From: Terriglobia bacterium
GTDB lineage: Bacteria; Acidobacteriota; Terriglobia; 20CM-2-55-15
Length of the DNA stretch: 64,000 bases
Reading direction: 5' to 3'
NCBI GenBank assembly: GCA_036496425.1
Contig: DASXLG010000202.1
Coordinates: 69 to 64,068, forward strand
In this document: in pieces, positions 9,505 to 59,760 of the stretch
How the letters are laid out: every line of letters starts with the position of its first letter
Position numbering within the stretch: the stretch's first letter is position 1
Notes under the pieces: model-generated
Told to the model about the DNA's origin: nothing
What the model saw: the letters and a program-made list of their open reading frames with translations, nothing else
The model's database searches: none
Translations under genes and position numbers: made by a program

Positions 9505-10155
9505 ATGTCCAAAAGTAACACTGTCCAGCTCATCAAGCCATTGGATGGCTTCGGCAACGTCGCGGACGTGGATGTGATTATACGTGCAACTGCGATCCAG
9601 ACGGCCATGACCGGCAACGCGAACTACCCCGCTCCACCGGTCGATCTGGCGGCCCTGAAGACGAACATCGACGCTTTCGTGGCGCTCGTCGCGCAAGCGG
9701 CCGATGGAAGTAAGAAGGTCATTGCCGAAAAAAACAAGCAACGCGCAACCGTCGTGGAGATGGTGCGGATGCTTGGCCGCTACGTGGAAGGCGCATCGAA
9801 AGGTGATATGTCGATCTTCCAGACGAGCGGCTTCCAGTCTGCTTCAACGACAAAGACGAAATCACCGCCGTTGTCGGAGACGATCCGCAAAATCGCCCAT
9901 GGCCCCAACAGCGGACAGGCCACTATCTGGCTGCGTTCGCTGAAGGACGCGTTGAGCTACACCGTCCGTTATGCGCCCATGGTGAATGGCGCGGCGCCCA
10001 CAACGTGGACCGAGCAACCTATCGGTCTGCTGACGGCGCCCGTGCTGCTCACGGGTCTGACACCGGTCACTACCTATGCGTTTCAAACACGTGCCACGTT
10101 GAAGAACCACACGTACACGGACTGGAGCGACTCGGTAACGTTCATCGTGACGTAG
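9505..10155 (+). CDS. hypothetical protein with C-terminal fibronectin-III-like domain
   Basis: 216 aa with a very strong SD (AAAGGAGGA) 7 nt upstream and an AT-rich promoter-like tract at 9340-9480. The C-terminal ~90 aa show an FN3-like pattern (TVRYAP...W...LTGLTPVTTYAFQTRA). No signal peptide. Confidence 0.65.
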   Translation: MSKSNTVQLIKPLDGFGNVADVDVIIRATAIQTAMTGNANYPAPPVDLAALKTNIDAFVALVAQAADGSKKVIAEKNKQRATVVEMVRMLGRYVEGASKGDMSIFQTSGFQSASTTKTKSPPLSETIRKIAHGPNSGQATIWLRSLKDALSYTVRYAPMVNGAAPTTWTEQPIGLLTAPVLLTGLTPVTTYAFQTRATLKNHTYTDWSDSVTFIVT

Positions 10156-10158
10156 CCG

Positions 10159-10762
10159 TTAGGGGGCGCACACCCGGATTCCCGAATTAATTCGGGAATT
10201 CGGGTCCACCGGGATGTCACCTTTATATGTGGACACGGCGCCGGTCCACCTTCCCAGGAGCACCGGAGATGGTTGGAACGCGGGCGGCCGCGGAGCAGGG
10301 TTGGTTGATGCGGGAGCTGCGCGCCACTTGGGCAAAAGCGTGACCAGGATCTTGTCAACAACCTCTCCTGGCCCGCAATCGATGGAGTTACACAGCACCA
10401 CGACGGCGATTTTCTCTGAAGGGACCAGCCGCAGGAACGAGGCGACTCCTGCCATGCTCCCATCGTGTGCAACGCTGCGATAACCATAGAAAGAATCGTT
10501 GATGAGCCACCCGATTCCATAGCCCGTACCGGCTTCCGGATTGGACGGCGCCGGTTGGCTTTTGCATCTCGTCGATCGAAGCATCCGAAAGGACCGGCGT
10601 CTGGTCGGCAAGATCTGCCTTCAGGTGGTACATCCCGAAGCGCACAAGATCATGCGCACTGGAGAAGATGGCGGATGCGCCGCGATGATCAAAATCGTAA
10701 AGGCGAGCGCGAAGAGGATGGGCATGAGCCATTCTGCCCGGACGCATTCTAAGATGCAACAT
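10159..10762 (-). pseudogene. beta-lactamase/serine-hydrolase family pseudogene (C-terminal fragment, frameshifted)
   Basis: Two overlapping ORFs in different frames (10388..10762 and 10159..10611). Together they cover the C-terminal part of a class-C beta-lactamase-like fold (...ASAIFSSAHDLVRFG..., then GYGIGWLINDSFYGYRSVAHDGSMAGVASFLRLVPSEKIAVVVLCN). The N-terminal S-x-x-K region is missing. Confidence 0.6.
10172..10205. repeat. 34-bp palindrome (ACCCGGATTCCCGAATT|AATTCGGGAATTCGGGT), member of the GC-rich palindromic element family
   Basis: 17-bp arms with one G-U wobble, located in the 10156-10160 gap region after the FN3-like gene. The core CCCGAATT..AATTCGGG also appears inside the elements at 24477 and 34806. 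Confidence 0.6.
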
Positions 10763-21340: not shown

Positions 21341-22210
21341 TTGGCGCAATTATTCAAAGCAGCAGCGGGACTCGTGTTCGCCATTGTCATCGCTGGAACG
21401 TCCGTGGCGGCAGGTGCCCAGTGGTTCAAGTATCCGAGTCCGGGAGCGCCGCGGACGGCGAACGGAGAGGTCGATCTTTCGGCAGCGGCTCCGCGGCTGG
21501 CGAATGGCAAGCCGGATTTGTCGGGTGTCTGGATGACCGGAGATCCGTCCTGCGGAGTTGGAGGTCCGGCGAACCTCAGCGATCTGATCAAGCTGGCTCC
21601 TCCGTCACGCAAGTGTCCGCCTCGTGGGGCAGCGATGTCGCGCGAAGGTATCAACATGGGTGTCGACCTGCCCGGCGGGTTACCTTACCAACCCTGGCTC
21701 GCGGATCTCGTTCAAAAACGCACGGCGAGCCTGGCGATCGACGATCCCCATATCCGGTGCCTGCCCGACACGTTTCTGCGCGCATATGGGCTCCCCCATT
21801 ATCTGAAGTTTATTCAAACGCCGAATATTCTCGCGGTGCTCAATGAAATGAACGGTGTTTACCGCCAGGTGTTCACGGACGGGCGGCCCCTGCCGGACGA
21901 CCCGAATCCGTCCTGGCAAGGATATTCGTCGGCCACCTGGTCCGGCGATACTCTCGTCGTGGAGACGATCGGATTTCGCGACGACCTATGGATCGACTGG
22001 GACGGCAGCGTCATCACACAATCCGCAAAGGTTCGCGAGCGAATCCGGCGGCCGGATTTCGGACACCTCGAAATCGAAGTAACGGTGGATGATCCGAAAG
22101 CATATACGAAGCCATGGAGCGTGACGTTGCACCAGCAGTTCGCACCTGATACGGAGTTGATCGATGAAATCTGCGCCGAGAATGAGAAGTTCTCACGGCA
22201 GCTGAAGTAG
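21341..22210 (+). CDS. secreted hypothetical protein
   Basis: TTG start 6 nt after a GGGAGG SD. Signal peptide MAQLFKAAAGLVFAIVIAGTSVAAGAQ. 289 aa. Confidence 0.6.
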   Translation: MAQLFKAAAGLVFAIVIAGTSVAAGAQWFKYPSPGAPRTANGEVDLSAAAPRLANGKPDLSGVWMTGDPSCGVGGPANLSDLIKLAPPSRKCPPRGAAMSREGINMGVDLPGGLPYQPWLADLVQKRTASLAIDDPHIRCLPDTFLRAYGLPHYLKFIQTPNILAVLNEMNGVYRQVFTDGRPLPDDPNPSWQGYSSATWSGDTLVVETIGFRDDLWIDWDGSVITQSAKVRERIRRPDFGHLEIEVTVDDPKAYTKPWSVTLHQQFAPDTELIDEICAENEKFSRQLK

Positions 22211-22231
22211 GCGCGCGTAATTCGGCATCGT

Positions 22232-22380
22232 GTGTGAGCGACCCCCTGCCCGCGCTTGCGCGGGCTGTCCCCCTGTGTCAGGGGGACAGTCAACAGTCAA
22301 ACCCCAGCAACTATCCTCCTGATGCAGGCCTGATACAGGGGGATAGCCGGCCGCCAGGCCGGCAGGGGGTCGCTCACAAG
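22232..22380. repeat. nested palindromic element (CAGGGGG/CCCCCTG heptamers) filling a convergent intergenic gap
   Basis: Perfect 18-bp terminal inverted repeat (TGTGAGCGACCCCCTGCC ... GGCAGGGGGTCGCTCACA). Internal hairpins CCCGCGC-ttg-GCGCGGG and CTGTCCCCCTG-tgt-CAGGGGGACAG are also present. Confidence 0.6.
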
Positions 22381-22385
22381 GACTG

Positions 22386-23690
22386 TCAGTAGCGGTTCGC
22401 GACGGGGAGTTCTTTAGCCGGATATAACGAAATGATCTTTGCGCCTTCCGGCGTGAGCACGACCATTTCTTCGATGCGCGCGGCGGAGACTCCGTCCGTT
22501 GCGGGACAGAATGTTTCGACGGCGAACACCATACCGGCCTTCAGCTCGTAGGGCTCGACGAAGGAATTCAGCCGCGAAATCAATGGACGCTCGTGCAAGC
22601 CCAATCCCAGACCGTGGCAGAAATTCAGGCCGAACGCGGCCATTTCGGTTTCGAAACCGATGTCCGAAGCCTTGGGTAGCTGCTCGGCGGCTTTGTCCGT
22701 CGTAACGCCCGGCTTGAGCATTTCGATAGTGTCGTCCATCCACTGCCGTGCGCGTTTGTAGGCATCGCGCTGCGGGGCGGTCGAGCTGCCGACCGAAAAG
22801 GTGCGGTAGTAGCAGGTTCGATAGCCGATAAACGAATGGATGATGTCGAAATATGCCTGATCGCCGGGGCGGATCAGACGATCCGTGAAATTGTGCGGGT
22901 GCGGACTGCAGCGTTCTCCGGCAATCGAGTTGATGCCTTCCACGCAATCCGATCCCATTTCATATAGCCGCTTCGAGGCCAGCGCCACGATCTGGCTTTC
23001 CTTCACGCCGGGTTTCAATGCGTCGGCGATGTCGTGATACACGCCGTCGACCATGCTGGACGCGATATTCAAAAGCGTGATTTCGTCGTGGCTCTTCACT
23101 TCGCGCGCATACAGCATCATCTGCTGTCCGTCGCGGACTTCGATTCCTTCTTCCTGAAGCGCGAAGAGCATCGGTGGCTCGCACACGTCCAGACCGAGCG
23201 GCATGTCCGCGACGCCTTCCTTCTTGAGAATCTCTTTGATCTCCTTCGCGGCCGCCTTGAACAGACCCACTTCGGGACCGATCGCGCCTCGCATGCCCGG
23301 ATTTCCCGCACGGACATGGTCCTCGTGCAGCCACGGACAGTAAATACGGTGATGGCGGGCCGCCGAACCGAAATCCCAGACCCACGGATCACCGGTTCCC
23401 GTCAGCAGGCAATAGCGGATCAGCTTGTCGCGAGCCCACTCACCAATAACGGTGCTCGAGATGTATCGGATGTTGTGCTGATCGAAGCAAAGCATGGCGC
23501 CGAGATCGGACTTCCCGAGCGATTCGCGCGTGCGCGCGAGGCGGTATCGATGAAGGCGGCGGAACTCCACCCGCTCTTCAAAATCCACCTGAGTAATTCC
23601 GGGCGCCTGCAGCGGGCGGTGCCAGCGATGCGCGGGCTTGAGATCGTCTTCATTAACGGGCAGAAATTCCGGTCTGTTCGACTTCTTCAT
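22386..23690 (-). CDS. M24 family metallopeptidase (Xaa-Pro peptidase / creatinase-like)
   Basis: 434 aa: a creatinase/prolidase-like N-terminal domain plus a pita-bread M24 C-terminal domain. SD before the ATG. Confidence 0.75.
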   Translation of the reverse strand: MKKSNRPEFLPVNEDDLKPAHRWHRPLQAPGITQVDFEERVEFRRLHRYRLARTRESLGKSDLGAMLCFDQHNIRYISSTVIGEWARDKLIRYCLLTGTGDPWVWDFGSAARHHRIYCPWLHEDHVRAGNPGMRGAIGPEVGLFKAAAKEIKEILKKEGVADMPLGLDVCEPPMLFALQEEGIEVRDGQQMMLYAREVKSHDEITLLNIASSMVDGVYHDIADALKPGVKESQIVALASKRLYEMGSDCVEGINSIAGERCSPHPHNFTDRLIRPGDQAYFDIIHSFIGYRTCYYRTFSVGSSTAPQRDAYKRARQWMDDTIEMLKPGVTTDKAAEQLPKASDIGFETEMAAFGLNFCHGLGLGLHERPLISRLNSFVEPYELKAGMVFAVETFCPATDGVSAARIEEMVVLTPEGAKIISLYPAKELPVANRY

Positions 23691-24853
23691 TAGAGCAACT
23701 CCGCTGGCTTGCGAATCGCTTCGGCCAGATCGTTCAGAAACATTGCGCCTTGAGCGCCATCGATCACACGATGGTCGCCGGATAATGTCAGCGTCATCAT
23801 CGGCCGCACAGCGGGCTTTCCATCCACGGCGACGACGCGGTCGGCGATGCGGCCAACCGCGAGGATTGCCGCCTGGGGCGGCAGAATGATCGCGCTGAAC
23901 GCATCGACGTTATACATGCCGAGATTCGTAATCGTGAACGTTCCGTTCGCCACATCCGAAGGCTTCAGACGGCCGCCGCGCGCTCGCTCGGTGAGATCTT
24001 TCCGCTGCTGCGCGATGCCCGGGAGCGAAGCCGCGTCGGCGTTGGGAATGACTGCTCCGACCACACCGTCCGTCACCGCCATGGCAAGACTGATGTTGAT
24101 GTTCGGGTTGAGGTGGATGCCGTTCCGGACCCAGCTCGCGTTGACCTTGGGATGCTTCTTCAACACGCGCGCGGTGAGTGAAACAAGGAGATCCGTAATG
24201 GTGACTTTATCGCGGCCCTGTTTTTCACGGGTTTCGAGCAGCGCTGTGGCATCGAGATCGCGAACAAGGAAGAAATGAGGAACCTGAGTCCAGCTCTGCG
24301 TCGTGCGCTCGGCCATGAGACGCGCGACGGCGCTGAGCGTGGCGGAGGCTGAAGTGGCGCCCGCGAGGACGTCGTCACTGATAATCGTGCCGGCGGGACC
24401 GGAGCCTTTCAGCGACCCGAGATCGACACCCTGCTCTTTAGCAAGCCGCCGCGCCTTCGGAGAAATCTGGGCGCGCGGGGACGAATCAGGGGTCGCACCC
24501 CCAATTCCTAGGTTTCGGAATTCGGGGTGCGACCCCTGATTCGTCCCCGATTTCGGGCCGGTAATTTTTCTGGCGGAAGGAGCCGCAGTGCCGGAGTCGG
24601 CCGGGGGCGTCTCGCCGGGAGCGACGATCCAGGCGATCGTCACGCCGACCGGAACGACATCACCCTCCTGAGACTTGACGCCGGCGAGCACACCGTCCGC
24701 CGCCGCTTCCACTTCCACGACGGCTTTGTCCGTCTCGATCTCGAGAATCGGCTCGCCCTTACTGATGGCATCGCCTTCTTTCTTGAGCCACGAAACGATC
24801 TTTCCCGTTTCCTGCGCCATTTCCAGCGCAGGCATCACTATGCTGGTTGCCAT
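23690..24853 (-). CDS. 2-oxoacid dehydrogenase complex E2 (dihydrolipoamide acyltransferase)
   Basis: Lipoyl domain (EIETDKAVVEVEA), PSBD (ISPKARRLAKEQGVDLGSLKGSGPAG) and a catalytic domain ending DHRVIDGAQGAMFLNDL. Confidence 0.9.
   Translation of the reverse strand: MATSIVMPALEMAQETGKIVSWLKKEGDAISKGEPILEIETDKAVVEVEAAADGVLAGVKSQEGDVVPVGVTIAWIVAPGETPPADSGTAAPSARKITGPKSGTNQGSHPEFRNLGIGGATPDSSPRAQISPKARRLAKEQGVDLGSLKGSGPAGTIISDDVLAGATSASATLSAVARLMAERTTQSWTQVPHFFLVRDLDATALLETREKQGRDKVTITDLLVSLTARVLKKHPKVNASWVRNGIHLNPNINISLAMAVTDGVVGAVIPNADAASLPGIAQQRKDLTERARGGRLKPSDVANGTFTITNLGMYNVDAFSAIILPPQAAILAVGRIADRVVAVDGKPAVRPMMTLTLSGDHRVIDGAQGAMFLNDLAEAIRKPAELL
24477..24548. repeat. 72-nt perfect palindromic element lying in-frame inside the E2 linker
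   Basis: 25-bp perfect stem (GGGGACGAATCAGGGGTCGCACCCC / GGGGTGCGACCCCTGATTCGTCCCC), a 6-bp inner stem (AATTCC/GGAATT) and an 8-nt loop. Length is 72 nt (24 codons). It encodes the linker segment between the lipoyl domain and the PSBD. Confidence 0.7.
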
Positions 24854-24868
24854 AATCGGTTCAAATGT

Positions 24869-25873
24869 CTACTCGAACATGTTCCGGGCCGCGTCGAAGA
24901 CCATTTGCTCGGTGGGAACCGTCGCATCTTCCAGCGGCGGTGAAAATGGAATCGGAACGTGCATCGCTCCAATACGTTTGACCGGCCAATCCAGATCGAA
25001 GAAACACTTTTCGGCAATCACCGAAGCGATCTCGGCGGTAGCGCCGTACCGGAAGTAGCCTTCGTCGACCACGATCGCACGCGCCGTTTTCTTCACAGAT
25101 TCGAGGATCGTTTCCTCATCGAGCGGCCATAACGTGCGCGGATCGATCACTTCAGCGCTGATGCCCTGGGCATCCAGCATTGTGGCAGCGCCCAAAGCAA
25201 CCTGAACCATGCTGCTTGTAGCAACGATCGTGACATCGTCGCCCTTGCGTTTGACGTCGGCCAGGCCGAGTGGAATCGTGTAATCTTCCGGCGGCACCGG
25301 GCCTTTCAACTTGTACATCATCTTGTCTTCAAAGAAGACGACGGGGTTTTCGTCGCGAATCGCGGTCTTCATCAGACCTTTCGCATCATAAGGCGTCGAA
25401 GGAAGCACGACTTTCAAGCCCGGAATGTGACAGAACCACGCGTGCAACGACTGCGAATGCTGAGCAGCCGAACGGCGGCTGGCGCCGAGCGTGGCGCGCA
25501 TGACCATCGGGACTTTCCATTTTCCGCCGGACATGTAGTGAACCTTCGCAGCCTGATTCACCATCTGGTCCATGACCAGCGTCGAAAAGTCGCCGAACAT
25601 GATGTCCACGACCGGCCGCATGCCGGTCATGGCCGCGCCGACCGCCATTCCGGTAAAGCCGGGTTCTGAGATCGGCGTGTCCAGGACGCGTTCGGGACCG
25701 AATTCATCGACCAGTCCACTGAGGACTTTGAAAACAGTTCCGGCTTCCGCGATGTCCTCTCCGCAGATGAACACCGTGGAATCACGGCGCATCTCTTCGG
25801 CGAGCGCCTCGCGGACCGCTTCTCCTAATGTCAGTTCGCGTGTCTCAGGCATAAATATCGTCATGCACCTCAT
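24869..25873 (-). CDS. 2-oxoacid dehydrogenase E1 component beta subunit
   Basis: Transketolase-like pyrimidine-binding plus C-terminal domains. An alternative start is the ATG at 25852 (MPETRELTLGEA...). Confidence 0.9.
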   Translation of the reverse strand: MRCMTIFMPETRELTLGEAVREALAEEMRRDSTVFICGEDIAEAGTVFKVLSGLVDEFGPERVLDTPISEPGFTGMAVGAAMTGMRPVVDIMFGDFSTLVMDQMVNQAAKVHYMSGGKWKVPMVMRATLGASRRSAAQHSQSLHAWFCHIPGLKVVLPSTPYDAKGLMKTAIRDENPVVFFEDKMMYKLKGPVPPEDYTIPLGLADVKRKGDDVTIVATSSMVQVALGAATMLDAQGISAEVIDPRTLWPLDEETILESVKKTARAIVVDEGYFRYGATAEIASVIAEKCFFDLDWPVKRIGAMHVPIPFSPPLEDATVPTEQMVFDAARNMFE

Positions 25874-26843
25874 CGACGCCGGGATATGGCGCGTCGATCG
25901 CGAATTTCACCGCTTTCTTAACCTCCGCTTCCACCTCGGCATGCATCTTGTCGAGCGCCGCCCGATCCGCCAGTTTTTCCGAGATCAACCAGTCCGCGAG
26001 CATCTTCACCGGATCACGCTGCGTCTTCCACATCGTCTCTTCTTCTTTCGAACGGTAGTAATCGCGCTTGACGTCACCGACGTGATGGCCATGGAACCGG
26101 TATGTATTGCACACCAGAAATGCAGGGCCCGCGCCGCCGCGCACCCGGTTCACGATCTCCTTCGCGGTCGCGTACACCTTGCGCACATCCTGTCCGTCGA
26201 TGGCTTCGCCCGGAATGCCGAAACCGGCAGCCCGGGTGACCATATCGCCGGCCAGCGTTTCTGAATTGTGGGTGTATTCGTTGTAGAGGTTGTTTTCGCA
26301 GACGTAGATGACCGGCAGCTTCCACAGTGCCGCCATGTTCATGACTTCATAGAGCAAGCCCTGTCCCATCGCGCCGTCGCCAAAGAAGCAGACGGCAACC
26401 TGATTCGTCTTCAAACGCTTCGCCGAAAGAGCGGCTCCGGTGGCGATACCGGCGCTTCCGCCCACGATGGCGTTCGCGCCCAGGTTTCCGGTTTCCGGAT
26501 CCGCGATGTGCATCGAACCGCCCTTGCCTTTGCAGTACCCGGCCTTTTTACCGAGCAGCTCGGCGAACATCCGATCGAGTTCCGCTCCCTTGGCCAGGCA
26601 GTGGCCGTGACCGCGGTGCGTGCTCGTGATGTAGTCATTGGGGTTCAGCGACTGGCAGACACCCACAGCGATGGCTTCTTCGCCAATGTAGAGGTGCGCG
26701 AGACCGGGCATGAGAGCGCGCGTGTAAAGGTCATTCGCGCTCTCTTCAAACGATCGGATCATCAGCATTTGGCGGTACATCCGGAGCCACTGTTCAGCTT
26801 CGGCCTGTGCCTGTGTTTTTGAAGGATCAACAGCCGTTGTCAT
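25845..26843 (-). CDS. 2-oxoacid dehydrogenase E1 component alpha subunit (TPP-dependent)
   Basis: TPP-binding motif GDGAMGQGLLYEVMNMAALWKLPVIYVCENN. 332 aa. Confidence 0.9.
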   Translation of the reverse strand: MTTAVDPSKTQAQAEAEQWLRMYRQMLMIRSFEESANDLYTRALMPGLAHLYIGEEAIAVGVCQSLNPNDYITSTHRGHGHCLAKGAELDRMFAELLGKKAGYCKGKGGSMHIADPETGNLGANAIVGGSAGIATGAALSAKRLKTNQVAVCFFGDGAMGQGLLYEVMNMAALWKLPVIYVCENNLYNEYTHNSETLAGDMVTRAAGFGIPGEAIDGQDVRKVYATAKEIVNRVRGGAGPAFLVCNTYRFHGHHVGDVKRDYYRSKEEETMWKTQRDPVKMLADWLISEKLADRAALDKMHAEVEAEVKKAVKFAIDAPYPGVDEVHDDIYA

Positions 26844-27721
26844 TTTGAAACTCCTGAGAGCTTTTCAAGAACTTTGAAAATGATCGCGAAGTCTTTTTCG
26901 GCGAGCCCCATTGCGCGTGCGGCGGTGAGGTATTCATTAGCAAGAGAAGTCGTCGGCAAAGGCACGTCGACCTGGCGGCCCAGTTCGAGCGCCAGCTGCA
27001 TATCTTTCTGCATCATGTTGACGTTGAACCAGGCTTCGTCGGGCATGTTCAGAACGAACGGTCCGCGGTACTGCAACATGGGAGATGCGACAACGCTGTG
27101 GAGAAGGACGTCCACGGCGATGTCGCGCGAAATGCCGGCCTTTTCCGCAAGCAATACGCCTTCGGCGAAAGCGAGAATCTGCGTCGGCAGGCAAAGGTTG
27201 ATGGCGATTTTCATCGAAAGCGCGAGGCCGTTATCGCCGACGTGCGTCGCCTTGGGTCCGAGATCAAGCAGGATCGGCTTGACCCGCTCGAAGGTCTCAG
27301 CGCGGCCGCCGACCATGACCGTAATTTTCCCCTGTTGAACTGTGATCACGCTTCCCGAAACAGGCGCATCCACCATGTCCGCGCCTTTTTCGCGAGCTAG
27401 TGCAGCGTGCTTGCGGCTGGTGGCCGGGCTCACGGTGCTCATATCGACCCAGACTTTTCCGGAGCTGAGGCCCGCAAGGATCCCATTGGGACCTTCCGCC
27501 AGCTCCGAAATGGCCGCGGAATTGGTAACCATCGAAAAGATGATATCGGCGGCGGCACACACCGCTTTGGGAGAGCCGGCCCACTTCATGCCCTTGTCGA
27601 GGAGCCATTGTGCCTTTGATTTCGTGCGGTTATAGCCAGTGACCGTATGTCCCTTTTCGAGGAACTTTTCGACCATATGGCTGCCCATCACACCAAGCCC
27701 GACGTACCCTAAATTCGCCAT
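26840..27721 (-). CDS. NAD(P)-dependent 3-hydroxyisobutyrate dehydrogenase family oxidoreductase
   Basis: MANLGYVGLGVMGSHM... Rossmann fold plus the HIBADH/6PGDH-like C-terminal domain. 4-nt overlap with the E1alpha start. Confidence 0.85.
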   Translation of the reverse strand: MANLGYVGLGVMGSHMVEKFLEKGHTVTGYNRTKSKAQWLLDKGMKWAGSPKAVCAAADIIFSMVTNSAAISELAEGPNGILAGLSSGKVWVDMSTVSPATSRKHAALAREKGADMVDAPVSGSVITVQQGKITVMVGGRAETFERVKPILLDLGPKATHVGDNGLALSMKIAINLCLPTQILAFAEGVLLAEKAGISRDIAVDVLLHSVVASPMLQYRGPFVLNMPDEAWFNVNMMQKDMQLALELGRQVDVPLPTTSLANEYLTAARAMGLAEKDFAIIFKVLEKLSGVSK

Positions 27722-28712: not shown

Positions 28713-28719
28713 AACCTTT

Positions 28720-28807
28720 ATTGGAGATTCGAGATTGGAGGTTGGAAATTAGAAATTTGCGGCACCGAAAATTTCCAATTTCCAACCTCCAATCTCGAAT
28801 TTCCAAT
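28720..28807. repeat. AT-rich palindromic element, copy 1 (TTGGAAATT family)
   Basis: 38-nt arms with 2 mismatches (ATTGGAGATTCGAGATTGGAGGTTGGAAATTAGAAATT ... AATTTCCAATTTCCAACCTCCAATCTCGAATTTCCAAT) and a 12-nt loop. GC about 33% in a ~60% GC background. Sits between the stop at 28712 and the ATG at 28828. Confidence 0.7.
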
Positions 28808-28827
28808 AAGTTTATAGGAGTTAAAAC

Positions 28828-30024
28828 ATGGATCTAGGTAATGGTCTCGGTCATCTGACGTATTCAACGCTGGTCCACCCGGGCGACACGTGGGAGGACA
28901 TGTGGCACAGCCTGATAACGTATGTGCCAAAGGTGAAGGAACGGATTTCTCCGAAGGAGCCGTTCGGCATTTCCCTTCGCCTTGCAAACGCATCCGCCGA
29001 GCGTCTCGTCAATGACAAGAAGGAACGGGACAAGCTGAAGAAGTTTCTCGCCGACAATGACATGTATCTTTACACGGTGAACGCGTTCCCGTATGGGCCG
29101 TTCAAGGGACGCGTCGTCAAGGAACAGGTTTATGAACCGGATTGGCGGAGCGATGAGCGAACGCAGTACACCATCAATGTCGCCGAAATCCTGGGCGATG
29201 TCGCTCCGGAAGGAAGCTCGCCCTCGATCCAGAGCGCTCCACTTGGTTTCAAGCCCCGCGTGACCGGACCGGACGTAGTCGCAAGCTATACCGAGCACGT
29301 CCTGCGCGTTGCCGCCCGCCTGGTCGATATCCATGCCCGCACCGGCCGCATGGTTGGCCTGGCGCTCGAACCCGAGCCGTTCTGCTTCCTGGAAACCACG
29401 GACGAAGCCGTGGACTACTTCACGAATCATCTGTACTCCGGCGCCGCCGCCGCGCGGGTGGCAAAGCTGGCCGGCATTCCGATCTCCGAAGCGCACATCG
29501 CATTGCGCCGGCACGTGGGTGTCGTGTTCGACATCTGCCATCAGGCGGTCGAATACGAGAACATTTCGGAATCGCTCCAGAAGCTGGTGAACGCCGGCAT
29601 CCCGATTTTCAAACTTCAGGAGGCCGCAGCGCTCTACATGCCGGAAGTGAACCCGGGCGTCATCGATGTGCTGACGCGCTTCGCGGACACGATCTACCTG
29701 ACACAGACGATGGAAAAGAAGGAAGGCCGGTTCAATCGATTCCTCAACCTCGAAGACGCCTTCGCAGCGTGGAAACAGAGTTCGGGTCCGCGGGAGTGGC
29801 GGACCCACATTCACGTGCCGGTTTTTCTCGACGACCTCGGGATGTTCCGGACCACGCGTTTCGCGATCGAAGACGCCTTGCGCTATCACAAGGCGAATCC
29901 GCTCTCACGGCAACTCGAAATCGAGACGTATACGTGGGATGTGCTGCCCGCAAGCTTGAAGACCGGCGATGTGGTGGATTACGTCTGCCGTGAACTGGAG
30001 TGGGTCAAGAGCCAGCTTTTGTAA
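28828..30024 (+). CDS. xylose-isomerase-like TIM-barrel protein (sugar phosphate isomerase/epimerase; EboE-like?)
   Basis: 398 aa. AGGAG SD. Conserved His/Glu-containing blocks of AP-endonuclease-2 / xylose-isomerase-like TIM barrels (HIHVPVF...). The EboE assignment is tentative. Confidence 0.65.
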   Translation: MDLGNGLGHLTYSTLVHPGDTWEDMWHSLITYVPKVKERISPKEPFGISLRLANASAERLVNDKKERDKLKKFLADNDMYLYTVNAFPYGPFKGRVVKEQVYEPDWRSDERTQYTINVAEILGDVAPEGSSPSIQSAPLGFKPRVTGPDVVASYTEHVLRVAARLVDIHARTGRMVGLALEPEPFCFLETTDEAVDYFTNHLYSGAAAARVAKLAGIPISEAHIALRRHVGVVFDICHQAVEYENISESLQKLVNAGIPIFKLQEAAALYMPEVNPGVIDVLTRFADTIYLTQTMEKKEGRFNRFLNLEDAFAAWKQSSGPREWRTHIHVPVFLDDLGMFRTTRFAIEDALRYHKANPLSRQLEIETYTWDVLPASLKTGDVVDYVCRELEWVKSQLL

Positions 30025-30027
30025 CTA

Positions 30028-30104
30028 CTGGAAATTCGAAATTGGAAGTTGGAAATTTCTTATATAAGAAATGAAGCAACCTCCAATTTCGAATTTCCAA
30101 TAAG
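30028..30104. repeat. AT-rich palindromic element, copy 2 (TTGGAAATT family)
   Basis: CTGGAAATTCGAAATTGGAAGTTGGAAATTTC ... GAAATGAAGCAACCTCCAATTTCGAATTTCCAATAAGTT. Shares the arm sequence and the 3' end (CGAATTTCCAATAAGTT) with copy 1, in the same orientation. Confidence 0.7.
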
Positions 30105-34793: not shown

Positions 34794-34805
34794 CGTCCAC
34801 AGTAT

Positions 34806-34859
34806 AGGGTCGCACACCTGAATTCCCGAATTCGAATTCGGGAGTTCAGGTGTGCGACC
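34806..34859. repeat. 54-bp near-perfect palindrome (GGGTCGCACACCTGAATTCCCGAATTC|GAATTCGGGAGTTCAGGTGTGCGACCC)
   Basis: 27-bp arms with a single G-U wobble and no loop. It overlaps the last codons and stop of the GT2 gene, and ends about 10 nt before the MetE-like start. Coordinates are +/-1. Confidence 0.65.
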
Positions 34860-36279
34860 CCCTCCGCCCCATGCGCCCCACATTCCGCGCGAAGCGGTCC
34901 CAACTCCTATCGCCGCGGAGAAATTGCACGACGCCTTTTGCGTTCGCATACACGAGGATCGGCCGATAAAGCAGCAGATCCAGCGGCGCAATCAGCGCCA
35001 TTCGTGTCAGCGCGCTCACCCGGTAATAGTGGAAGGCCGATTCGTTCAACCACAAACTGATCTCCGACATGATTCCGAGCGCAAGCACCTGAATCCCGAG
35101 CAGGGAAAAGAACTCTTTGAGATCCACCAATCGCAGCCAAAGCCCAAGACCCAGGGAAGCCAGGACGATCAACTGTACGAATGGCCCGAAACACTCGGAA
35201 ATAATCAAATACGGTAACCCGACAAACCCGAGCGCGCCGTAACGTGGCCGGAATAGAACTCTTCGGTAGTGCCACACCGTCTCCAGGATCACGCGCTGCC
35301 AGCGCGCCCGCTGGCTGATAAGCGCTGTAAGCCGCTCAGGGCCTTCGGTCGCCCCCACGATATCGGGAAGCGACAGGACGCGGCCGGGCCTCTTGTCGCG
35401 CTTGTACCTCTCCAGAACCCGGACTGTCATTTCGAGGTCTTCGCAGGTGAAAGCGGGCGAGAAGCCTCCAACCTCGAGCACGACGTCACGGCGCCAGATG
35501 GCAAAAGCCCCGCTGGCGCACAGCATGATGTTCATGCGGCTCCATGCCAGGCGATTGTTGAGAAATGACCGAAGAATCTCCAGGTGCTGGAAGTTGATCC
35601 AGAGATGCCGATCGATGTTCTTGTTTCCGATTTCGCCGGCCTCCTCCTGAAGTTCATGCCGGACGGCAACAATGCTGGTAATACCCAGCACTCCGGCCGG
35701 ATCTTTAATCGCCGGGCGCATCGCAACCAGCAGCGCATCGGGTTCGTATGCCGCATCGCCGTCGACGCAGCAGATATAACGGTCGCGCGCGAAGTTTACT
35801 CCGCAGTTCAACGCGTCGGCTTTGCCGCCGTTGCATTTATCGATGACGATCAGCCGTGGATCGGTCCGGCTGCGATAAATAGCACGCACGGGGCTGGTTT
35901 GCAGGAGCCGCCGCGCTGTCACACTGACCGACTGCAAGACGAATTCCCGGCGAAGTGCTCCAAGCGTTTCGTCTTTTGATCCGTCGTTAACGACGACAAT
36001 TTCAAATTCCGGATACTCAAAGGCCAGGAGCCGGCGCACCACCGCTCCAATCATGCCCTGCTCGTTGTAGACCGGGACAATGACGGAGACGGGGATGGTG
36101 AAGCGCGAATCCGACAACGCATCATAATCGTCCGTATGCGACTCGGCCGTACGTCTCCGGTTTTCCAACATGGCGACAATGGCCATGAACAGAGTGAAGG
36201 CGTAAAGCAGCATCAGGTATGCAAAACTGAGCAGAAAGGTCCAATCGAAGAATGGTCTTAGCGCGAGCCCTGAAATCAT
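34846..36279 (-). CDS. family 2 glycosyltransferase, processive synthase type (PgaC/IcaA/BcsA-like)
   Basis: 477 aa with N- and C-terminal TM segments. Carries the GT2 DxD and QxxRW-type blocks (...VNDGSKDET..., ...QRARWQRV...). Confidence 0.85.
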   Translation of the reverse strand: MISGLALRPFFDWTFLLSFAYLMLLYAFTLFMAIVAMLENRRRTAESHTDDYDALSDSRFTIPVSVIVPVYNEQGMIGAVVRRLLAFEYPEFEIVVVNDGSKDETLGALRREFVLQSVSVTARRLLQTSPVRAIYRSRTDPRLIVIDKCNGGKADALNCGVNFARDRYICCVDGDAAYEPDALLVAMRPAIKDPAGVLGITSIVAVRHELQEEAGEIGNKNIDRHLWINFQHLEILRSFLNNRLAWSRMNIMLCASGAFAIWRRDVVLEVGGFSPAFTCEDLEMTVRVLERYKRDKRPGRVLSLPDIVGATEGPERLTALISQRARWQRVILETVWHYRRVLFRPRYGALGFVGLPYLIISECFGPFVQLIVLASLGLGLWLRLVDLKEFFSLLGIQVLALGIMSEISLWLNESAFHYYRVSALTRMALIAPLDLLLYRPILVYANAKGVVQFLRGDRSWDRFARNVGRMGRRGSHT

Positions 36280-43571: not shown

Positions 43572-43663
43572 TCTGTAGTCGCGGACTTTAGCCCGCGTTC
43601 CGCCCTCGCCCGGCAACATAGTGGTCGAGACTGGAACGCGGGCTGAAGCCCGCGACTACATCT
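43572..43663. repeat. ~92-nt inverted-repeat element (TGTAGTCGCGG...CCGCGACTACA arms)
   Basis: ~29-nt arms with 3 mismatches, separated by ~30 nt. Each arm also contains an internal GCGGGCT..AGCCCGC hairpin. Confidence 0.55.
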
Positions 43664-55556: not shown

Positions 55557-58502
55557 TTACGGCGCCGGCACGAGCACGCGAACCGTCGTTCCCTGGACCG
55601 GACCGGTGAGAAGCTCGAACTGTGCTCCGATCTGGCTGGCACGCTCGCGCATGCCTGTCAGACCGTAATGCCCGGCCGCGGGGCCGGCGGCATCGGCCAG
55701 GCCCTTGCCGTCGTCCTGCACCGTTAAGCAGATGGAGTTCTTTGCGAAGCGCAAGCCCACTTCAATCGTGGTGGCGTCCGCGTGCCTGGTGGAATTGGCG
55801 ATCGCTTCCTGAGCAATCCGGAGCAGATGTCCTTCGACACTCGCCGGCAGGTGAGAGGGACCGCGATCGAGCTTGAGTTTGAGCTGAATATCTTTGCTCT
55901 TCGTGATCTGACGGGCAGTCTCCGCGATTGCGGCTTGAAGCTCCGCGTCTCCGCCTTTGACGGCGCGCAGGCCGGCAATGGATTGCCGCGCTTCTCTCAT
56001 GCATTGCGCGGCGTCCCGGATCAACTCATTCAATCGGCTTTGGCCCTGGCCGGCAGACAGACCTGTAGAGATCGCCTGCATTCCCATCGTGATGCCGGAA
56101 AAGCCTTGCAGCAATGTATCGTGAAGCTCTCGGGCAATGCGGCCGCGTTCAGCCAGTACGATCTCGAACTGCTGCCGCAGGCTCCGGACACGCATGTGCC
56201 AGACAAGCCAGGCAACAAATAAGAGGCCGGCGCCGCAAAGTGGAAAGAACCAGGCGCGCTGATAGTAATAAGGAGCGAGGCTGAACGCGACCGCGCTCCC
56301 GGATTCATTGCACAACCCATCGACGTTGCACGCGATCACACGGAACTGGAATTTGCCCGGAGGCAGATTCGTGTAGTAAGCGTCGCGCCGCGTGGAAGCG
56401 TCGGTCCAGTTTGTATCGTATCCTTCGAGCTTGTAGCGGAAGCGGATTCCGGCAGGCGCGAGGAAACTCAACGCCGTGTAGCGAAACTCCAGATCCTTGC
56501 GGCCCGCCGGTGCCGATCCAATAGCAGCCGGGGCTTCCTTCCGGCTATTCACGATGACGTCCTCGATAACGACCGGCGGGGCCGGCGCGTTGCGCTGCAG
56601 CTTCGCCGGATCGAGCACGAGCAGACCGCGAATGGTCGCAAACCAAAGCGTTCCATCCTTCATCTTCCACACGGCAGGCTGCACTCCGGATCTGCTTTCA
56701 ATGGTTCTCAGACCGTCCAGCGGGCTGTACGGCGTGCTGACGAATTTCTGAATTTCGCCCTCGGCAAACTTCCGCAGATCCGATCGATTCACTGAAAAGA
56801 TGCCTTTGCTCGATGCCATCCAGAGCCGGTCCTGGCTGTCCTCCGCAATGCCGTAGATTTCGTTGTCGAACAGGCCGTCCCGCATGAAATAGCTGGAGAC
56901 TTTTCCATCCTTCAACAGGCGCAGGCCGGCGCCCAGCGTTCCCATCCACAGCAGGCCCTCCTGGTCGACGAAGAACGTATCGACCTCGCGCAACGGTATA
57001 TCGGATGGAGCAAACTCGCGGAAGGCGTGGTCCTGATAAATCTTCAGGCCGGCTTCGGTCGCTGCCAGAAAATGTCCGGCCTTGTCCTCGCCTCCCGCCA
57101 CGGCGGACAGCCGTGAAGCATCTTTCGGCTGGATGAATCTGCCGTTCACGAACATGCTGAGGCCTGAAGGCGTTCCAATCCAGAGAGCGCCGGCGTGATC
57201 GTGGAAGAGAAACCGGATGTGATTGTCCGCGAGTCCCTGGTCGCGCGTGTAAGTTTCGACGACGCTGCCGTGTCTGAGCAGATTGAGCCCAGCGTTGGTT
57301 CCGACCCAGAGGTCTCCGGCGGGATCTTCCGCAAGGGCATAGATTTCATTTCCAGCCAAGCCCTGCTTCGTCGTGAGCACGGTGAGGTGCCGGGCATCGT
57401 CAAACCGGCAGAGGCCGGCGCCGATCGTACCGACCCAGACGGTGCCGTCGCGGTCTTGAAGGACCGGACCGACGTCGTTCGTCGGCAGGCCTTCGCTGAC
57501 GGTATAAGGAATGGTCCGGCCCTCAAGAAACTGATTCAGTCCGTGCTTCGTTCCAGCCCAAAGGCTGCCTTCGCGGTCTTCGTACAGCGAATAAACCGTG
57601 CTCTGGGACAGGCCGTCTTCGGTCCGATAACTTTCGAACTTCCCGTTGCGGAACCGGCTGAAGCCGCTTTTGGTGCCAATCCACAGCGTCCCGTCGCGGC
57701 CTTCGATCAGGGAGTAGATCCAGTTATCGGGGAGGCCGTCCTTCACGGTCATCAGATGTTCACGTCCGCCGGCGAAGCGGATCAAGCCGTTCGTGGTGCC
57801 GGCCCACACGGCGCCGTCATCGGAACACAGGAGGGCGCGAATATCCCCATATTCGGGCATCGACGTCAGCGGGTGATTAATAAAGGAGGAACCGTTCCAG
57901 GAACTCAGACGATTGCCGTCTCCGCCCACCCACAATGTGCCGTCCGGAGCCTCACATGCCGAGCGGACATTATTTGAGGGCAACCCTTGAGGCATGCCGT
58001 ACATCGTCAGTTTCCCTTGATTCAAACGAGCGAGGCCGGTAGACGTACAGGCCCAGATGTTTTCATTGCGGTCCTGCAACAAACACTGCACGGTCGAACG
58101 CTGCGGTTCGTCCTTCTGCAGGTATTGCGTCGCCACACCGTTTTCCAGCCGGATGAGGCCGGCCTCGTTTGTGCCGACCCAGAGGTTGTGGTGCTTGTCT
58201 TCCAGAATGTTCCGGACCCATGCGCCTTTCAGCGGCGGCTGGGCCGCCGGCGACGTGCTGGCCATTTCCGAGAAACGGACGCCGTCGAAACGGACAAGGC
58301 CCGCTTCGGTTCCAAGCCACAAATAACCGTCGTGGGTTTGCAGGATCGATGTGATCGTGGCGTCGGGCAACCCCTGCGGCGCCTGCCAGATACGATGCAC
58401 ATATTGCGTCAGTGCGCGGTTGGGATCGAGCGCGAAGGCCGGGATGCAGAGAAAGAGCAACAGCAGGACACCGGCCAGCGAAAGGCATTTTGGACGCAGC
58501 AT
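55557..58502 (-). CDS. sensor histidine kinase with periplasmic two-component-regulator beta-propeller + Y_Y_Y domains
   Basis: Trimmed to the ATG at 58502 (signal/TM MLRPKCLSLAGVLLLLFLCIPAFA). Multiple Reg_prop repeats (..GLW[VI]GT..), then a TM, HisKA_3 and HATPase_c. Confidence 0.85.
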   Translation of the reverse strand: MLRPKCLSLAGVLLLLFLCIPAFALDPNRALTQYVHRIWQAPQGLPDATITSILQTHDGYLWLGTEAGLVRFDGVRFSEMASTSPAAQPPLKGAWVRNILEDKHHNLWVGTNEAGLIRLENGVATQYLQKDEPQRSTVQCLLQDRNENIWACTSTGLARLNQGKLTMYGMPQGLPSNNVRSACEAPDGTLWVGGDGNRLSSWNGSSFINHPLTSMPEYGDIRALLCSDDGAVWAGTTNGLIRFAGGREHLMTVKDGLPDNWIYSLIEGRDGTLWIGTKSGFSRFRNGKFESYRTEDGLSQSTVYSLYEDREGSLWAGTKHGLNQFLEGRTIPYTVSEGLPTNDVGPVLQDRDGTVWVGTIGAGLCRFDDARHLTVLTTKQGLAGNEIYALAEDPAGDLWVGTNAGLNLLRHGSVVETYTRDQGLADNHIRFLFHDHAGALWIGTPSGLSMFVNGRFIQPKDASRLSAVAGGEDKAGHFLAATEAGLKIYQDHAFREFAPSDIPLREVDTFFVDQEGLLWMGTLGAGLRLLKDGKVSSYFMRDGLFDNEIYGIAEDSQDRLWMASSKGIFSVNRSDLRKFAEGEIQKFVSTPYSPLDGLRTIESRSGVQPAVWKMKDGTLWFATIRGLLVLDPAKLQRNAPAPPVVIEDVIVNSRKEAPAAIGSAPAGRKDLEFRYTALSFLAPAGIRFRYKLEGYDTNWTDASTRRDAYYTNLPPGKFQFRVIACNVDGLCNESGSAVAFSLAPYYYQRAWFFPLCGAGLLFVAWLVWHMRVRSLRQQFEIVLAERGRIARELHDTLLQGFSGITMGMQAISTGLSAGQGQSRLNELIRDAAQCMREARQSIAGLRAVKGGDAELQAAIAETARQITKSKDIQLKLKLDRGPSHLPASVEGHLLRIAQEAIANSTRHADATTIEVGLRFAKNSICLTVQDDGKGLADAAGPAAGHYGLTGMRERASQIGAQFELLTGPVQGTTVRVLVPAP

Positions 58503-58538
58503 ATTACGATTCGATCTTACTGCCGTTCGCGAAACACG

Positions 58539-58628
58539 AAAAGGGGAAGGAACGCAAGAAGCACAAAAGGCACAAGAAGGGCGGGTCTTTCTTGTGCCTT
58601 TTGTGCTTCTTGCGTTCCTTCCCCTTTT
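58539..58628. terminator. perfect 40-bp-stem hairpin (purine-rich / pyrimidine-rich arms) immediately after the GspS-like stop codon
   Basis: 58539-58578 (GAAAAGGGGAAGGAACGCAAGAAGCACAAAAGGCACAAGAA region) pairs perfectly with 58589-58628, with a 10-nt loop. On the minus-strand transcript it is followed by CCUUUUCGUGUUUCG. The hairpin ends 36 nt before the HK start codon. Confidence 0.5.
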
Positions 58629-59760
58629 ACCGAAACAAGTGCGGGACAAACCGGCTGAGGTTCGTGGTGATCGGGCCGTCGGACTCGCGAATTCCCATAC
58701 CGCAGGCGCCTTGATCGATCACGTACCAGCTTCCGACAACCGGATAATTCCCCTCAAACGCCGGAATATGTGCAGCGGCCTGATACACGAACGCGCCGTC
58801 GCCGTAGTTCCCGGGCGTGTTCACGCGCGGGCCCGAACTGCCGACGAGCGTGACGTTCGCGCCTTCACGCGAATAGAGCGGCTTGCGGATGTAGTCGACC
58901 ATCAATCCGGGATTGTCGATGTGCGCTTCGAGCAGCAGCGGATGCTGGGGAAACAGTTCCCAGAGAATCGCGAGGATGCCTTTGTTCGACGCAACCATTT
59001 TCCAGATGGGCTCGATCCACTGCATCGCGGAATGCGTGTCGATCAGATGCTGCGCGAAGGCTTCGCCGAGAAGCCACTCCCATGGATACAGCTTGTAAAT
59101 GCTGTGAATGCGATTGCCGGCAAGATCTACGAAACACTCGCCGTTCCATCCGATCTCGGCAACGGTCAGCGCCTCGGTTTTGTAGCCCGATTGCTGAGCG
59201 AGGTCGCGGAGATATGTCACCGTCATCATGTCTTCCGTATCCGCGGCATGCGTGAAATATAGAGGCGAGCCGTCGATGTAGTTCACCAGCTCCGTGAACT
59301 TCGCCAGAAGCTTTTCGTGGATGGAATTGAACTGATCGCAATTCTTGTGCGTGTCCTGCAGCCAATACCATTGAATGATCGAAGCTTCCAGCAGAGCCGT
59401 CGGCGTGTCGGCATTGAATTCGAGCGCTTTGATGGCGCCCTTGCCATCGTAAGCAAGGTCAAAGCGCCCATGCAGCGCCGGAGGCTCCTGGTTCCACGCC
59501 GATATGATGAGCGGCACAGCGGCCGCCGGAATGCGCAGCTCGGCGAAACGGTTTTGATCGATCACGCGCTGAATCGCCGCAAGCCACATGTTCCATAGCT
59601 CATTCGTCGCCGCTTCGAGCGCATCGACTTCTTTCGCAGTGAACTCATAGAACACGGACTCGTCCCAATAGCGCTGGCCGTCAGGCGTGTGATAGATCAG
59701 CCCCTGAGATTCGACGGCGGATCTCCACGACGCGCGCTCGGGTTGTTGTTTCCGGATCAT
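58627..59760 (-). CDS. glutathionylspermidine synthase family protein (YjfC-like ATP-grasp amidoligase)
   Basis: Trimmed to the ATG at 59760 (MIRKQQPERASW...). GspS pre-ATP-grasp and ATP-grasp blocks are present and there is no CHAP amidase domain. 377 aa. Confidence 0.8.
   Translation of the reverse strand: MIRKQQPERASWRSAVESQGLIYHTPDGQRYWDESVFYEFTAKEVDALEAATNELWNMWLAAIQRVIDQNRFAELRIPAAAVPLIISAWNQEPPALHGRFDLAYDGKGAIKALEFNADTPTALLEASIIQWYWLQDTHKNCDQFNSIHEKLLAKFTELVNYIDGSPLYFTHAADTEDMMTVTYLRDLAQQSGYKTEALTVAEIGWNGECFVDLAGNRIHSIYKLYPWEWLLGEAFAQHLIDTHSAMQWIEPIWKMVASNKGILAILWELFPQHPLLLEAHIDNPGLMVDYIRKPLYSREGANVTLVGSSGPRVNTPGNYGDGAFVYQAAAHIPAFEGNYPVVGSWYVIDQGACGMGIRESDGPITTNLSRFVPHLFR

Follow-up and report, generated by a model that had tools for sequence, protein, structure and literature searches.

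Palindromic repeats lying in frame within protein-coding genes were reportedly described in Rickettsia by Ogata et al. in Science (290:347) in 2000, as Rickettsia palindromic elements (RPEs). RPEs are ~100–150 bp long and A+T-rich, form multi-copy families with a clear consensus in an obligate intracellular alphaproteobacterium, and add residues to their host proteins relative to orthologs. Repetitive extragenic palindromic sequences (REPs) abut gene ends, but intragenic dimers of the GTAG and CGTC families are found in genes of several phyla, where more than half of the intragenic inserts are dimers, contributing 20–30 aa, and Di Nocera et al. 2013 propose neutrality for insertions in 'flexible linkers or loops' (PMC3733652). 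Hairpin-forming REP doublets of ~70–110 nt are known as REPINs (PMC3116915, Bertels & Rainey 2011). Here, we analyzed a 64,000-nt stretch (the window) of contig DASXLG010000202.1 from a Terriglobia metagenome-assembled genome (MAG), in which a long, almost perfect palindrome lies inside the gene encoding the E2 dihydrolipoamide acyltransferase of a 2-oxoacid dehydrogenase cluster. We conclude, with a probability of roughly 0.6, that this palindrome is a REPIN-like repeat that was recently acquired in the inter-domain linker of E2 and is tolerated there as an otherwise inert part of the tether.

The host gene and the parts of the element are located as follows in the window.

23690–24853, minus strand: E2 dihydrolipoamide acyltransferase gene, 387 aa, host of the palindrome (open reading frame and Pfam).
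24629–24841, minus strand: region coding for the lipoyl domain, aa 5–75 (Biotin_lipoyl PF00364, E = 8.9e-16).
24476–24559, minus strand: replaced tract, codons 99–126 (GPKSGTNQGSHPEFRNLGIGGATPDSSP), the hypervariable section of the linker (codon-level comparison with locus L082; shuffle z = 0.7).
24365–24466, minus strand: region coding for the peripheral-subunit (E3) binding domain, aa 130–163 (E3_binding PF02817, E = 3.6e-12).
23693–24346, minus strand: region coding for the catalytic acyltransferase domain, aa 170–387 (2-oxoacid_dh PF00198, E = 1.3e-68).
24476–24508, no strand: palindrome arm 1, 33 nt (inverted-repeat search and folding).
24509–24516, no strand: central 8-nt loop, TAGGTTTC on the plus strand (sequence reading, inverted-repeat search and folding).
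24517–24549, no strand: palindrome arm 2, 33 nt, with one C/C mismatch to arm 1 (inverted-repeat search and folding).
24489–24501, no strand: mini-palindrome GGGGT-CGC-ACCCC in arm 1, a REP-like unit.
24524–24536, no strand: mini-palindrome GGGGT-GCG-ACCCC in arm 2, the inverted copy of that unit.

The two 33-nt arms are 97% complementary and enclose 8 nt, giving a 74-nt element with a 26-bp outer stem, a single C/C mismatch, a 6-bp inner stem and an 8-nt loop, which ranks fourth by length among the short-range inverted repeats of the window. An earlier note, made from the letters alone, had described a 25-bp stem, a 6-bp inner stem and an 8-nt loop, and this description held with the addition of one outer C-G pair. 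The note's placement of the element was also borne out by the open reading frame and the Pfam domains, as the 72 nt from 24477 to 24548 correspond to 24 codons lying in frame within the E2 coding sequence between the lipoyl and E3-binding domains, with the palindrome beginning at the last base of codon 102 and ending at the middle base of codon 126. The reading frame is intact, and each of the three domains is recognized with a good score. Folding of the sense RNA gives −77.7 kcal/mol, compared with −36.8 ± 3.7 for 200 dinucleotide shuffles (z = −11.2; 0/200 as good), and the DNA fold reaches −45.6 kcal/mol (z = −9.7), with Watson-Crick symmetry throughout the 33 bp except for the one mismatch and no G-U pairs. 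Only one of the three frames through the element is free of stop codons, and it is the one used by E2, yielding a Gly-, Ser-, Thr- and Pro-rich peptide; as the other two hold stop codons, the frame acts as a filter.

Within the arms, the mini-palindromes GGGGTCGCACCCC (24489–24501) and GGGGTGCGACCCC (24524–24536) are inverted copies of one another located 22 nt apart, and the REP-like unit can be written as GGGGTSSSACCCC. Since each arm contains such a mini-palindrome, the whole element is an inverted doublet of a REP-like unit, with two inverted palindromic units and a spacer that together fold as a hairpin, as in REP doublets. By analogy with REPINs, the element could therefore fold as one long hairpin or as a 'clover'. 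Immediately beyond one end of the palindrome, a 10-nt segment (GAAATCGGGG in gene orientation; 24462–24471 vs 24545–24554) is the reverse complement, at 9/10 positions, of the native conserved Q-I-S codons (CCCAGATTTC) 9 nt past the other end, which may reflect chance or junction microhomology.

A metagenome scan with the E2 protein returned relatives of at most 73% identity, and close relatives were gathered individually. Across 32 relatives of 72–89% identity, the alignment contained no 24-residue gap. The linker is bordered by conserved ARKIT upstream and RAQISPKARR downstream, and the stretch between them is hypervariable, measuring 24–32 aa in nearly all of the 120 best relatives, with two outliers of 40–41 aa. 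In the nearest ortholog, P0002 (locus L082), which shares 93.7% amino acid identity outside the linker and has diverged at 74/196 4-fold sites (0.38), the linker is an ordinary one of 28 aa, without an inverted repeat (fold z = +1.0), compared with 32 aa in the window. Assuming approximately the 4-fold-site rate on the window branch, ~0.19 per site over 66 paired bases, a palindrome dating from the split with P0002 should have collected 0.19 × 66 = ~12 stem-breaking changes, and one was seen (Poisson ~5e-5). The ordinary linker of the nearest ortholog, together with one mismatch in place of ~12, thus identifies the E2 palindrome as derived and young, a recent acquisition, and the lack of arm-to-arm homogenization in a sister clade, described below, does not favor a hidden greater age. 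At the codon level, 24 codons of L082 correspond to 28 codons of the window, 24 of which are the palindrome, with a net gain of 4. The palindromic tract resembles the L082 linker DNA only at chance level (alignment vs shuffles, z = 0.7), so the palindrome is foreign to the linker it displaced.

The earlier note had predicted a 24-aa indel coinciding with the palindrome, and this did not materialize: with linkers of 28 vs 32 aa, ~24 codons were replaced rather than added. It had also held that orthologs all carrying the same 24 codons would speak for a native linker; the orthologs differ, which leaves that objection without force, but there is no indel either, the old linker having been overwritten. 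A presence/absence indel as in RPE insertions was likewise not found in the window lineage, where the linker has 32 aa with the palindrome and 28 aa without, or in two other palindrome-bearing lineages.

In a sister clade (P0003, 4, 5, 7, 8, 9 and 10), with linkers such as SGAKGSDPSSP..RGLTPLPQ, a 64-nt palindrome occupies the same linker site. As read in the DNA of five loci (L081, L203, L204, L206 and L207), it includes GGGGCAAAGGGGTCAGACCCC... and has the form GGGGCAAAGGGGTCAGACCCCTCGTCCC-loop-GGGACGAGGGGTCTGACCCCTTTGCCCC, starting 12 nt after a conserved Thr codon, compared with 11 nt in the window, in the same frame relative to the core, and replacing 21 codons by 22. The sister-clade and window palindromes are identical at 47/72 positions (z = 3.4, p = 0.0015 by shuffles). 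The palindrome is perfect in L081, with a 28-bp stem and a DNA fold z of −12.3, and carries 2–7 stem mismatches in the other four DNAs. Across the five sequences, 18 of the 28 stem pairs are invariant, 5 have one-sided changes, 5 are broken and none has changed on both sides, with a covariation score no better than that of shuffles; the sister-clade palindrome therefore decays neutrally, and neither selection for pairing nor homogenization of the arms is apparent. In a neighbor-joining tree made without the linker, in which pairwise 4-fold divergences within the clade are 0.19–0.24, P0006 and P0011 (L205) are nested in the clade without a palindrome. Their 29-aa linker (ASQTSASAKA.PGAARPGEG.R) resembles outgroup linkers (PGAA...EGPRAQ in P0021 and P0022), and the L205 linker shows no similarity to the palindromes of L081, L203 and L204 (z ≤ −0.9). 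The 'palindrome-free' linker of P0011 holds an imperfect hairpin with 17-nt arms at L205 1799–1836 (CGGTTTCGGCGTCGCAG / CTGCTTCGGCGAAAGCG, 13/17; segment fold z = −2.8), which may be a remnant of an older element.

Palindromes recur at the E2 linker site in other lineages. The linker of P0012 (EGHRGQTPRPRIPGDEGSDPYAP), compared at the peptide level only, matches the L081 palindrome first through the left arm in frame 2 (GQRGQTPRPR, 9/10) and then through the right arm in frame 0 (DEGSDPFAP, 8/9), while P0012 itself groups with the palindrome-free P0013 and P0021 and has a linker of 32 aa vs their 27. As 17/19 residues matching alternative frames are not plausibly due to chance, this indicates a probable separate occurrence of an L081-type element family in the same linker. 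In L003, the linker contains CTGTAGGGGCGCTCTATGAGCGCCC-AGG-GCGGTCACAGACCGCCCCTACAG, in which a GTAG-bearing outer stem closes two small hairpins; this head-to-head GTAG REP doublet lies in a 114-nt segment that folds at −58.6 kcal/mol. The doublet is decayed in L001 and L014, a variant with the same outer stem is present in L005 and L016, and its peptide, Y[DE]RPGRSQTAP, is seen in P0018, 48, 86, 92, 99, 101 and 113. The L007 linker contains a further imperfect hairpin. In L017 (1840–1920), the linker changed by another route, a tandem duplication encoding AEREPDRAKPQ twice.

Linker windows of 79 orthologs show slightly stronger folding than controls taken from the same genes (mean z −0.57 vs −0.07; z < −3 in 5% vs 1%; Mann-Whitney p = 0.008), with z < −2 in only 7 of the 79. 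Given this modest excess, palindromes visit the linker now and then and are no fixed part of it. A broader idea, in which old palindromes generally pile up in the linker, was considered and dropped as doubtful, most linkers showing no excess folding. Throughout ~283 kb of related loci, the other placeable palindromes with arms of at least 20 nt sit in spacers by gene ends, many of them in the E1beta-E2 spacer or just after E2.

The window has a G+C content of 58% and contains, besides the E2 element, seven long palindromes, all of which are extragenic and directly abut gene ends. Two extragenic relatives of the E2 element, one partial and one decayed, were found there.

34804–34863, no strand: 60-nt extragenic palindrome, located in the spacer following the gene that ends at 34846 (40/55 identical to the E2 element).
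10158–10215, no strand: extragenic, partly decayed relative of the 34804 element (86% identity over 42 nt to 34820–34861).

The inner ~47 nt of the E2 palindrome (24490–24536) aligns end to end with 34807–34860, the two having in common GGGTCGCAC..CC..AATTCC / GGAATTC..GG..GTGCGACCC, with GGGTCGCAC(A)CC..AATTCC / GGAATTC..GG(T)GTGCGACCCC as the core of the alignment, and the outer 11–12 bp of the arms has no counterpart in the window. The decayed relative starts 3 nt after the stop codon of the gene at 9505–10155, and its clean inverted repeat (10172–10205) starts 17 nt after it. At the tag position, the 34804 and 10158 elements carry ATAG and TTAG, respectively. The earlier note's claim of a core shared with intergenic palindromes is thus real as far as the inner part of the element is concerned, and does not extend beyond it.

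Several other palindromes of the window belong to distinct families. Those at 28718–28809 and 30026–30102 are A+T-rich, have arms of 41–45 and 26 nt and form one family (63/90 identical), filling the spacers on either side of the gene at 28828–30024, with differences largely mirrored in both arms. A palindrome of the GTAG-tagged REP unit (GTAGTCGCGGGCTT[C/T]AGCCCGCGT) lies between convergent genes at 43574–43660, and the unit is 23/24 identical in L034 (1394–1469), a metagenome contig whose E2 is only ~61% identical, so this GTAG REP family is common to distant soil lineages. The 58535–58632 palindrome has perfect 40-bp arms with many CACAAAAGG motifs and occupies the spacer that immediately follows the gene ending at 58627, inside the maximal open reading frame of the next gene (55557–58649). 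Relatives matching it at 50–52 of 67–68 nt are located at L014 1413–1490, L013 286–367 and L081 5471–5535, either between E1beta and E2 or following the gene for the M24 peptidase. The window genome carries several REP/REPIN-like families, and the E2 element is built like one of them.

Genome contigs were scanned for the core pair with the pattern GGGGTCNNACCCCN{10,40}GGGGTNNGACCCC, which is too general and returned at least 120 stretches. Matches were dominated by GGGGTC[A/T]GACCCC in many phyla, and the source MAG was not among the matches listed. The only other hairpin with the exact core pair of the window among the matches listed is L193 331–370, from a Gemmatales MAG (Planctomycetota), in which GGGGTCGCACCCCGA...TCGGGGTGCGACCCC is identical to the window element over 16 nt at each end. 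The 13-mer GGGGTC[A/T]GACCCC, a 6-bp palindrome around one central base, stands at both ends of hairpins with variable centers, often with A/T-tract flanks and sometimes in tandem arrays (e.g., L088 609–656, L104 3927–3976 and L123 6216–6272), and was exact in ~147/153 of the matches listed although two positions had been left free. It occurs in more than 100 genomes (L083–L202) from Pseudomonadota, Actinomycetota, Acidobacteriota, Bacillota, Planctomycetota, Bacteroidales, Omnitrophota and a spirochaete, and looks like a very widespread untagged REP-like unit. A literature search with the 11- and 13-mer cores found nothing relevant and, in the papers searched, no mention of the core in the context of bacterial repeats.

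Several observations weigh against a REPIN-like origin of the E2 palindrome. No second full copy of it was found in the 64-kb window by blastn, and its likeness to 34804–34863 is limited to the inner part and was recognized after the fact. No GTAG or CGTC tag stands beside its stem, where TCAG / CTGA is found, and the stem differs from those of CGTC REP families, which have 8–9 bp and start with A-T pairs (PMC3733652). The flanks (...CCCGAAATC / GCGCGCCCAG...) contain no direct repeat that could represent a target-site duplication, and no transposase turned up, the window proteins not having been screened for PF01797 (RAYT, a Y1 HUH transposase). Neither protein-database search with the element translation was convincing, both being low-powered: a word-index search of 5.8 billion proteins gave one unscored candidate and one match at E = 10, with source proteins unrecovered and such searches uninformative for short queries, and an HMMER scan of 1.84 billion cluster representatives, which can miss insertion polymorphisms, gave two weak matches in large proteins. 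In addition, simple transposition predicts a gain of 21–24 aa, but the three palindrome-bearing lineages gained +1 to +5 aa although they acquired 64–74 nt, so a further assumption is required, either that a deletion took place at the same time and passed the filter of selection or that the mechanism overwrites DNA. The earlier note's picture of a REP-like mobile palindrome in a gene therefore stands in part: the element is derived, recent and foreign, has extragenic likenesses and finds parallels at the same site, but lacks a second full copy in the 64 kb and a target-site duplication. Its alternative label, MITE-like, does not fit an element that is palindromic throughout and has no target-site duplication.

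Taking these observations together, we consider it probable that an inverted doublet of a short G/C-rich stem-loop unit (GGGGT-CGC-ACCCC and flanks), similar in general kind to the long spacer palindromes of this Terriglobia genome and its soil relatives, recently entered the hypervariable linker between the lipoyl and E3-binding domains and displaced ~24 ancestral codons. It may have been mobilized in trans through a single-stranded hairpin by RAYT or IS200-type enzymes, by analogy with other such repeats, or copied from an ectopic palindrome during repair, and the old linker would have been lost in the same event, with selection on linker length as the filter. The allele would have survived because it presents the only stop-free frame, because its Gly/Ser/Thr/Pro-rich translation suits a flexible tether and because the linker stays within the length range of the family; its expected fate would be decay by point mutation, as in the sister-clade palindrome. 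The constant length could mean that selection on tether length lets through only the rare events in which gain and loss coincide, or that the mechanism itself overwrites DNA. It is possible, though we regard it as doubtful, that the linker is a recurrent, length-preserving 'cassette' site which several REPIN-like families overwrote rather than inserted into, in at least four independent events comprising the window element, a GGGGTCAGACCCC-type element in two lineages with two frame sets, and the GTAG REP doublets. If true, this would imply hairpin-directed replacement, such as break repair from an ectopic palindrome or exchange by HUH enzymes, and inter-domain linkers would then regularly draw their sequence from selfish palindromes.

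In-situ template switching, in which a fork stalled in the linker lets the nascent strand copy the opposite strand or itself with length kept (PMC8794818), accounts naturally for the almost constant linker length in three lineages, which is awkward for insertion, and would suit a window palindrome that looks unique in sequence and a left flank (GAAATCGGGG) that is the 9/10 reverse complement of the native CCCAGATTTC opposite. However, the ancestral-type linker DNA of the nearest relatives is unlike either arm, leaving no local template, and the inner part has its match in an extragenic palindrome at a distance of 10 kb. Moreover, the sister-clade palindrome recurs in other frames in another lineage and the core 13-mer ends hairpins in more than 100 genomes, which argues for an imported module rather than a local invention, and we consider local template switching rather unlikely; switching to a palindrome elsewhere in the genome merges with the REPIN-like explanation. 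Improbable, in our judgment, is a single ancient palindrome common to the window lineage and the sister clade, with arms kept alike by correction and the P0002, P0006 and P0011 alleles arising through recombination. The nearly identical offsets from the conserved Thr codon (11 and 12 nt), the reading of both palindromes in one frame relative to the core (GGG TCN NAC CCC), the common architecture of a 13-nt core, 22-nt center and 13-nt core, and the mirroring in both arms of all differences between the two palindromes, including a 4-nt indel, are in its favor, and the intermingling of bearing and free alleles in the sister-clade tree requires some recombination anyway. Against this, the arms of the five sister-clade sequences are not homogenized, all ~11 changes being one-sided, the age of the split between the two lineages (4-fold divergence 0.46) predicts heavy degradation rather than the single mismatch of the window, and the palindrome-free linkers resemble those of outgroups (PGAA...EGPRAQ).

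A functional hairpin or cruciform, serving in ribosome pausing between domains, in mRNA stability or processing within the operon, or in protein binding, would explain a very stable structure (−77.7 kcal/mol) exactly at a domain boundary, the recurrence of palindromes at the lipoyl/E3-binding boundary in several lineages and the slightly better folding of linker windows than controls across the 79 orthologs (p = 0.008). It is slightly less probable still, as the nearest ortholog and most of the ~85 ortholog DNAs examined lack the hairpin, none of the 28 stem pairs of the decaying sister palindrome shows a compensatory change, and 33 bp of Watson-Crick symmetry without G-U pairs points to the DNA level rather than to a selected RNA. 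An assembly or sequencing artefact such as a fold-back chimera comes to mind for a unique and perfectly symmetrical element in a MAG, but is hardly credible for a 74-nt sequence that fits within single short reads, keeps the reading frame without a stop codon, and belongs to a protein found identical in three sources and contigs, while the sister-clade palindrome appears in different states of decay in independent metagenome samples. The exact E2 protein is recorded on 3 contigs (NCBI, JGI and Logan) and is 100% identical to HEY2382391.1, annotated at NCBI as 'dihydrolipoamide acetyltransferase family protein' on a 614-kb contig of a Terriglobia MAG.

Three further candidates for the hairpin were tried and rejected. 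No T-run follows the stem, and a terminator scan of 23600–25000 reports no site at the palindrome on either strand, excluding an intrinsic terminator. Rfam 15 gave only generic long-hairpin miRNA models at 25–38 bits vs thresholds of 80–268 bits, the best match being sub-threshold at 38 bits against a 268-bit cut-off. Reading of the sequence upstream of the palindrome revealed no slippery heptamer for programmed frameshifting.

The E2 gene belongs to a conserved gene order (window 21341–27721; L081 1–6593; L205) comprising an NAD-binding dehydrogenase (PF03446), E1 alpha, E1 beta, E2 and an M24 peptidase, followed in relatives by a gene for a cytochrome c-like protein. No E3 gene adjoins this cluster, which is of the 2-oxoacid / acetoin-type dehydrogenase kind. 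In many relatives (L004, L006, L014, L015, L034 and L039, at ~1380–1500 in each), the E1beta-E2 spacer is ~100 nt long and filled by a long palindrome of varying family; the gap in the window is only 15 nt and contains no palindrome.

The locus provides a clean, datable case, outside Rickettsia and the tagged REP families, of a selfish palindromic repeat translated within an essential multidomain enzyme, and it shows that the hypervariable tether joining swinging-arm domains can accommodate such elements. Linker peptides such as GSDP, GLTP, GQTP and YERPGRSQTAP are footprints of DNA repeats, not protein motifs, and linker alignments in these E2 families mix non-homologous segments. The near-constant linker length despite acquisitions of 64–74 nt indicates either strong selection on tether length in E2 or an overwriting mode of acquisition.

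Among described systems, MITEs resemble the E2 element in being small, non-coding and mobile, in having inverted ends and in landing at times within genes, even in frame, but consist of terminal inverted repeats around a non-palindromic core with target-site duplications, whereas the symmetry of the E2 element extends over its whole length and no direct repeat flanks it. Template-switch (quasipalindrome) mutations (Monttinen & Loytynoja 2022, PMC8794818) likewise produce long perfect stems in one step, mirrored changes and preserved length, but they copy neighboring sequence, and the E2 arms match no ancestral local sequence and have relatives elsewhere. The earlier note's analogy with RPEs holds in that the palindrome lies in frame in an intact, functional-looking gene, is translated as a tolerated peptide and has related copies outside genes; it fails in that codons are replaced rather than added, and the E2 element differs further in being G+C-rich, 72–74 nt long, carried by a free-living soil acidobacterium, with a net gain of 4 aa, and apparently single-copy in 64 kb. 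With REP dimers and REPINs, the E2 element shares the architecture of an inverted doublet of a short stem-loop, ~70 nt in length and foldable as one long or two small hairpins, as well as extragenic relatives packed against gene ends. It departs from them in carrying TCAG in place of a GTAG/CGTC tag, in a unit stem of only 5 bp and in having swapped out linker codons rather than added them, and within the 64-kb window it has relatives but no second full copy. In-frame palindromic repeats are thus already known from RPEs and REP dimers, but the recurrent, length-preserving replacement seen in this linker is unusual and possibly new.

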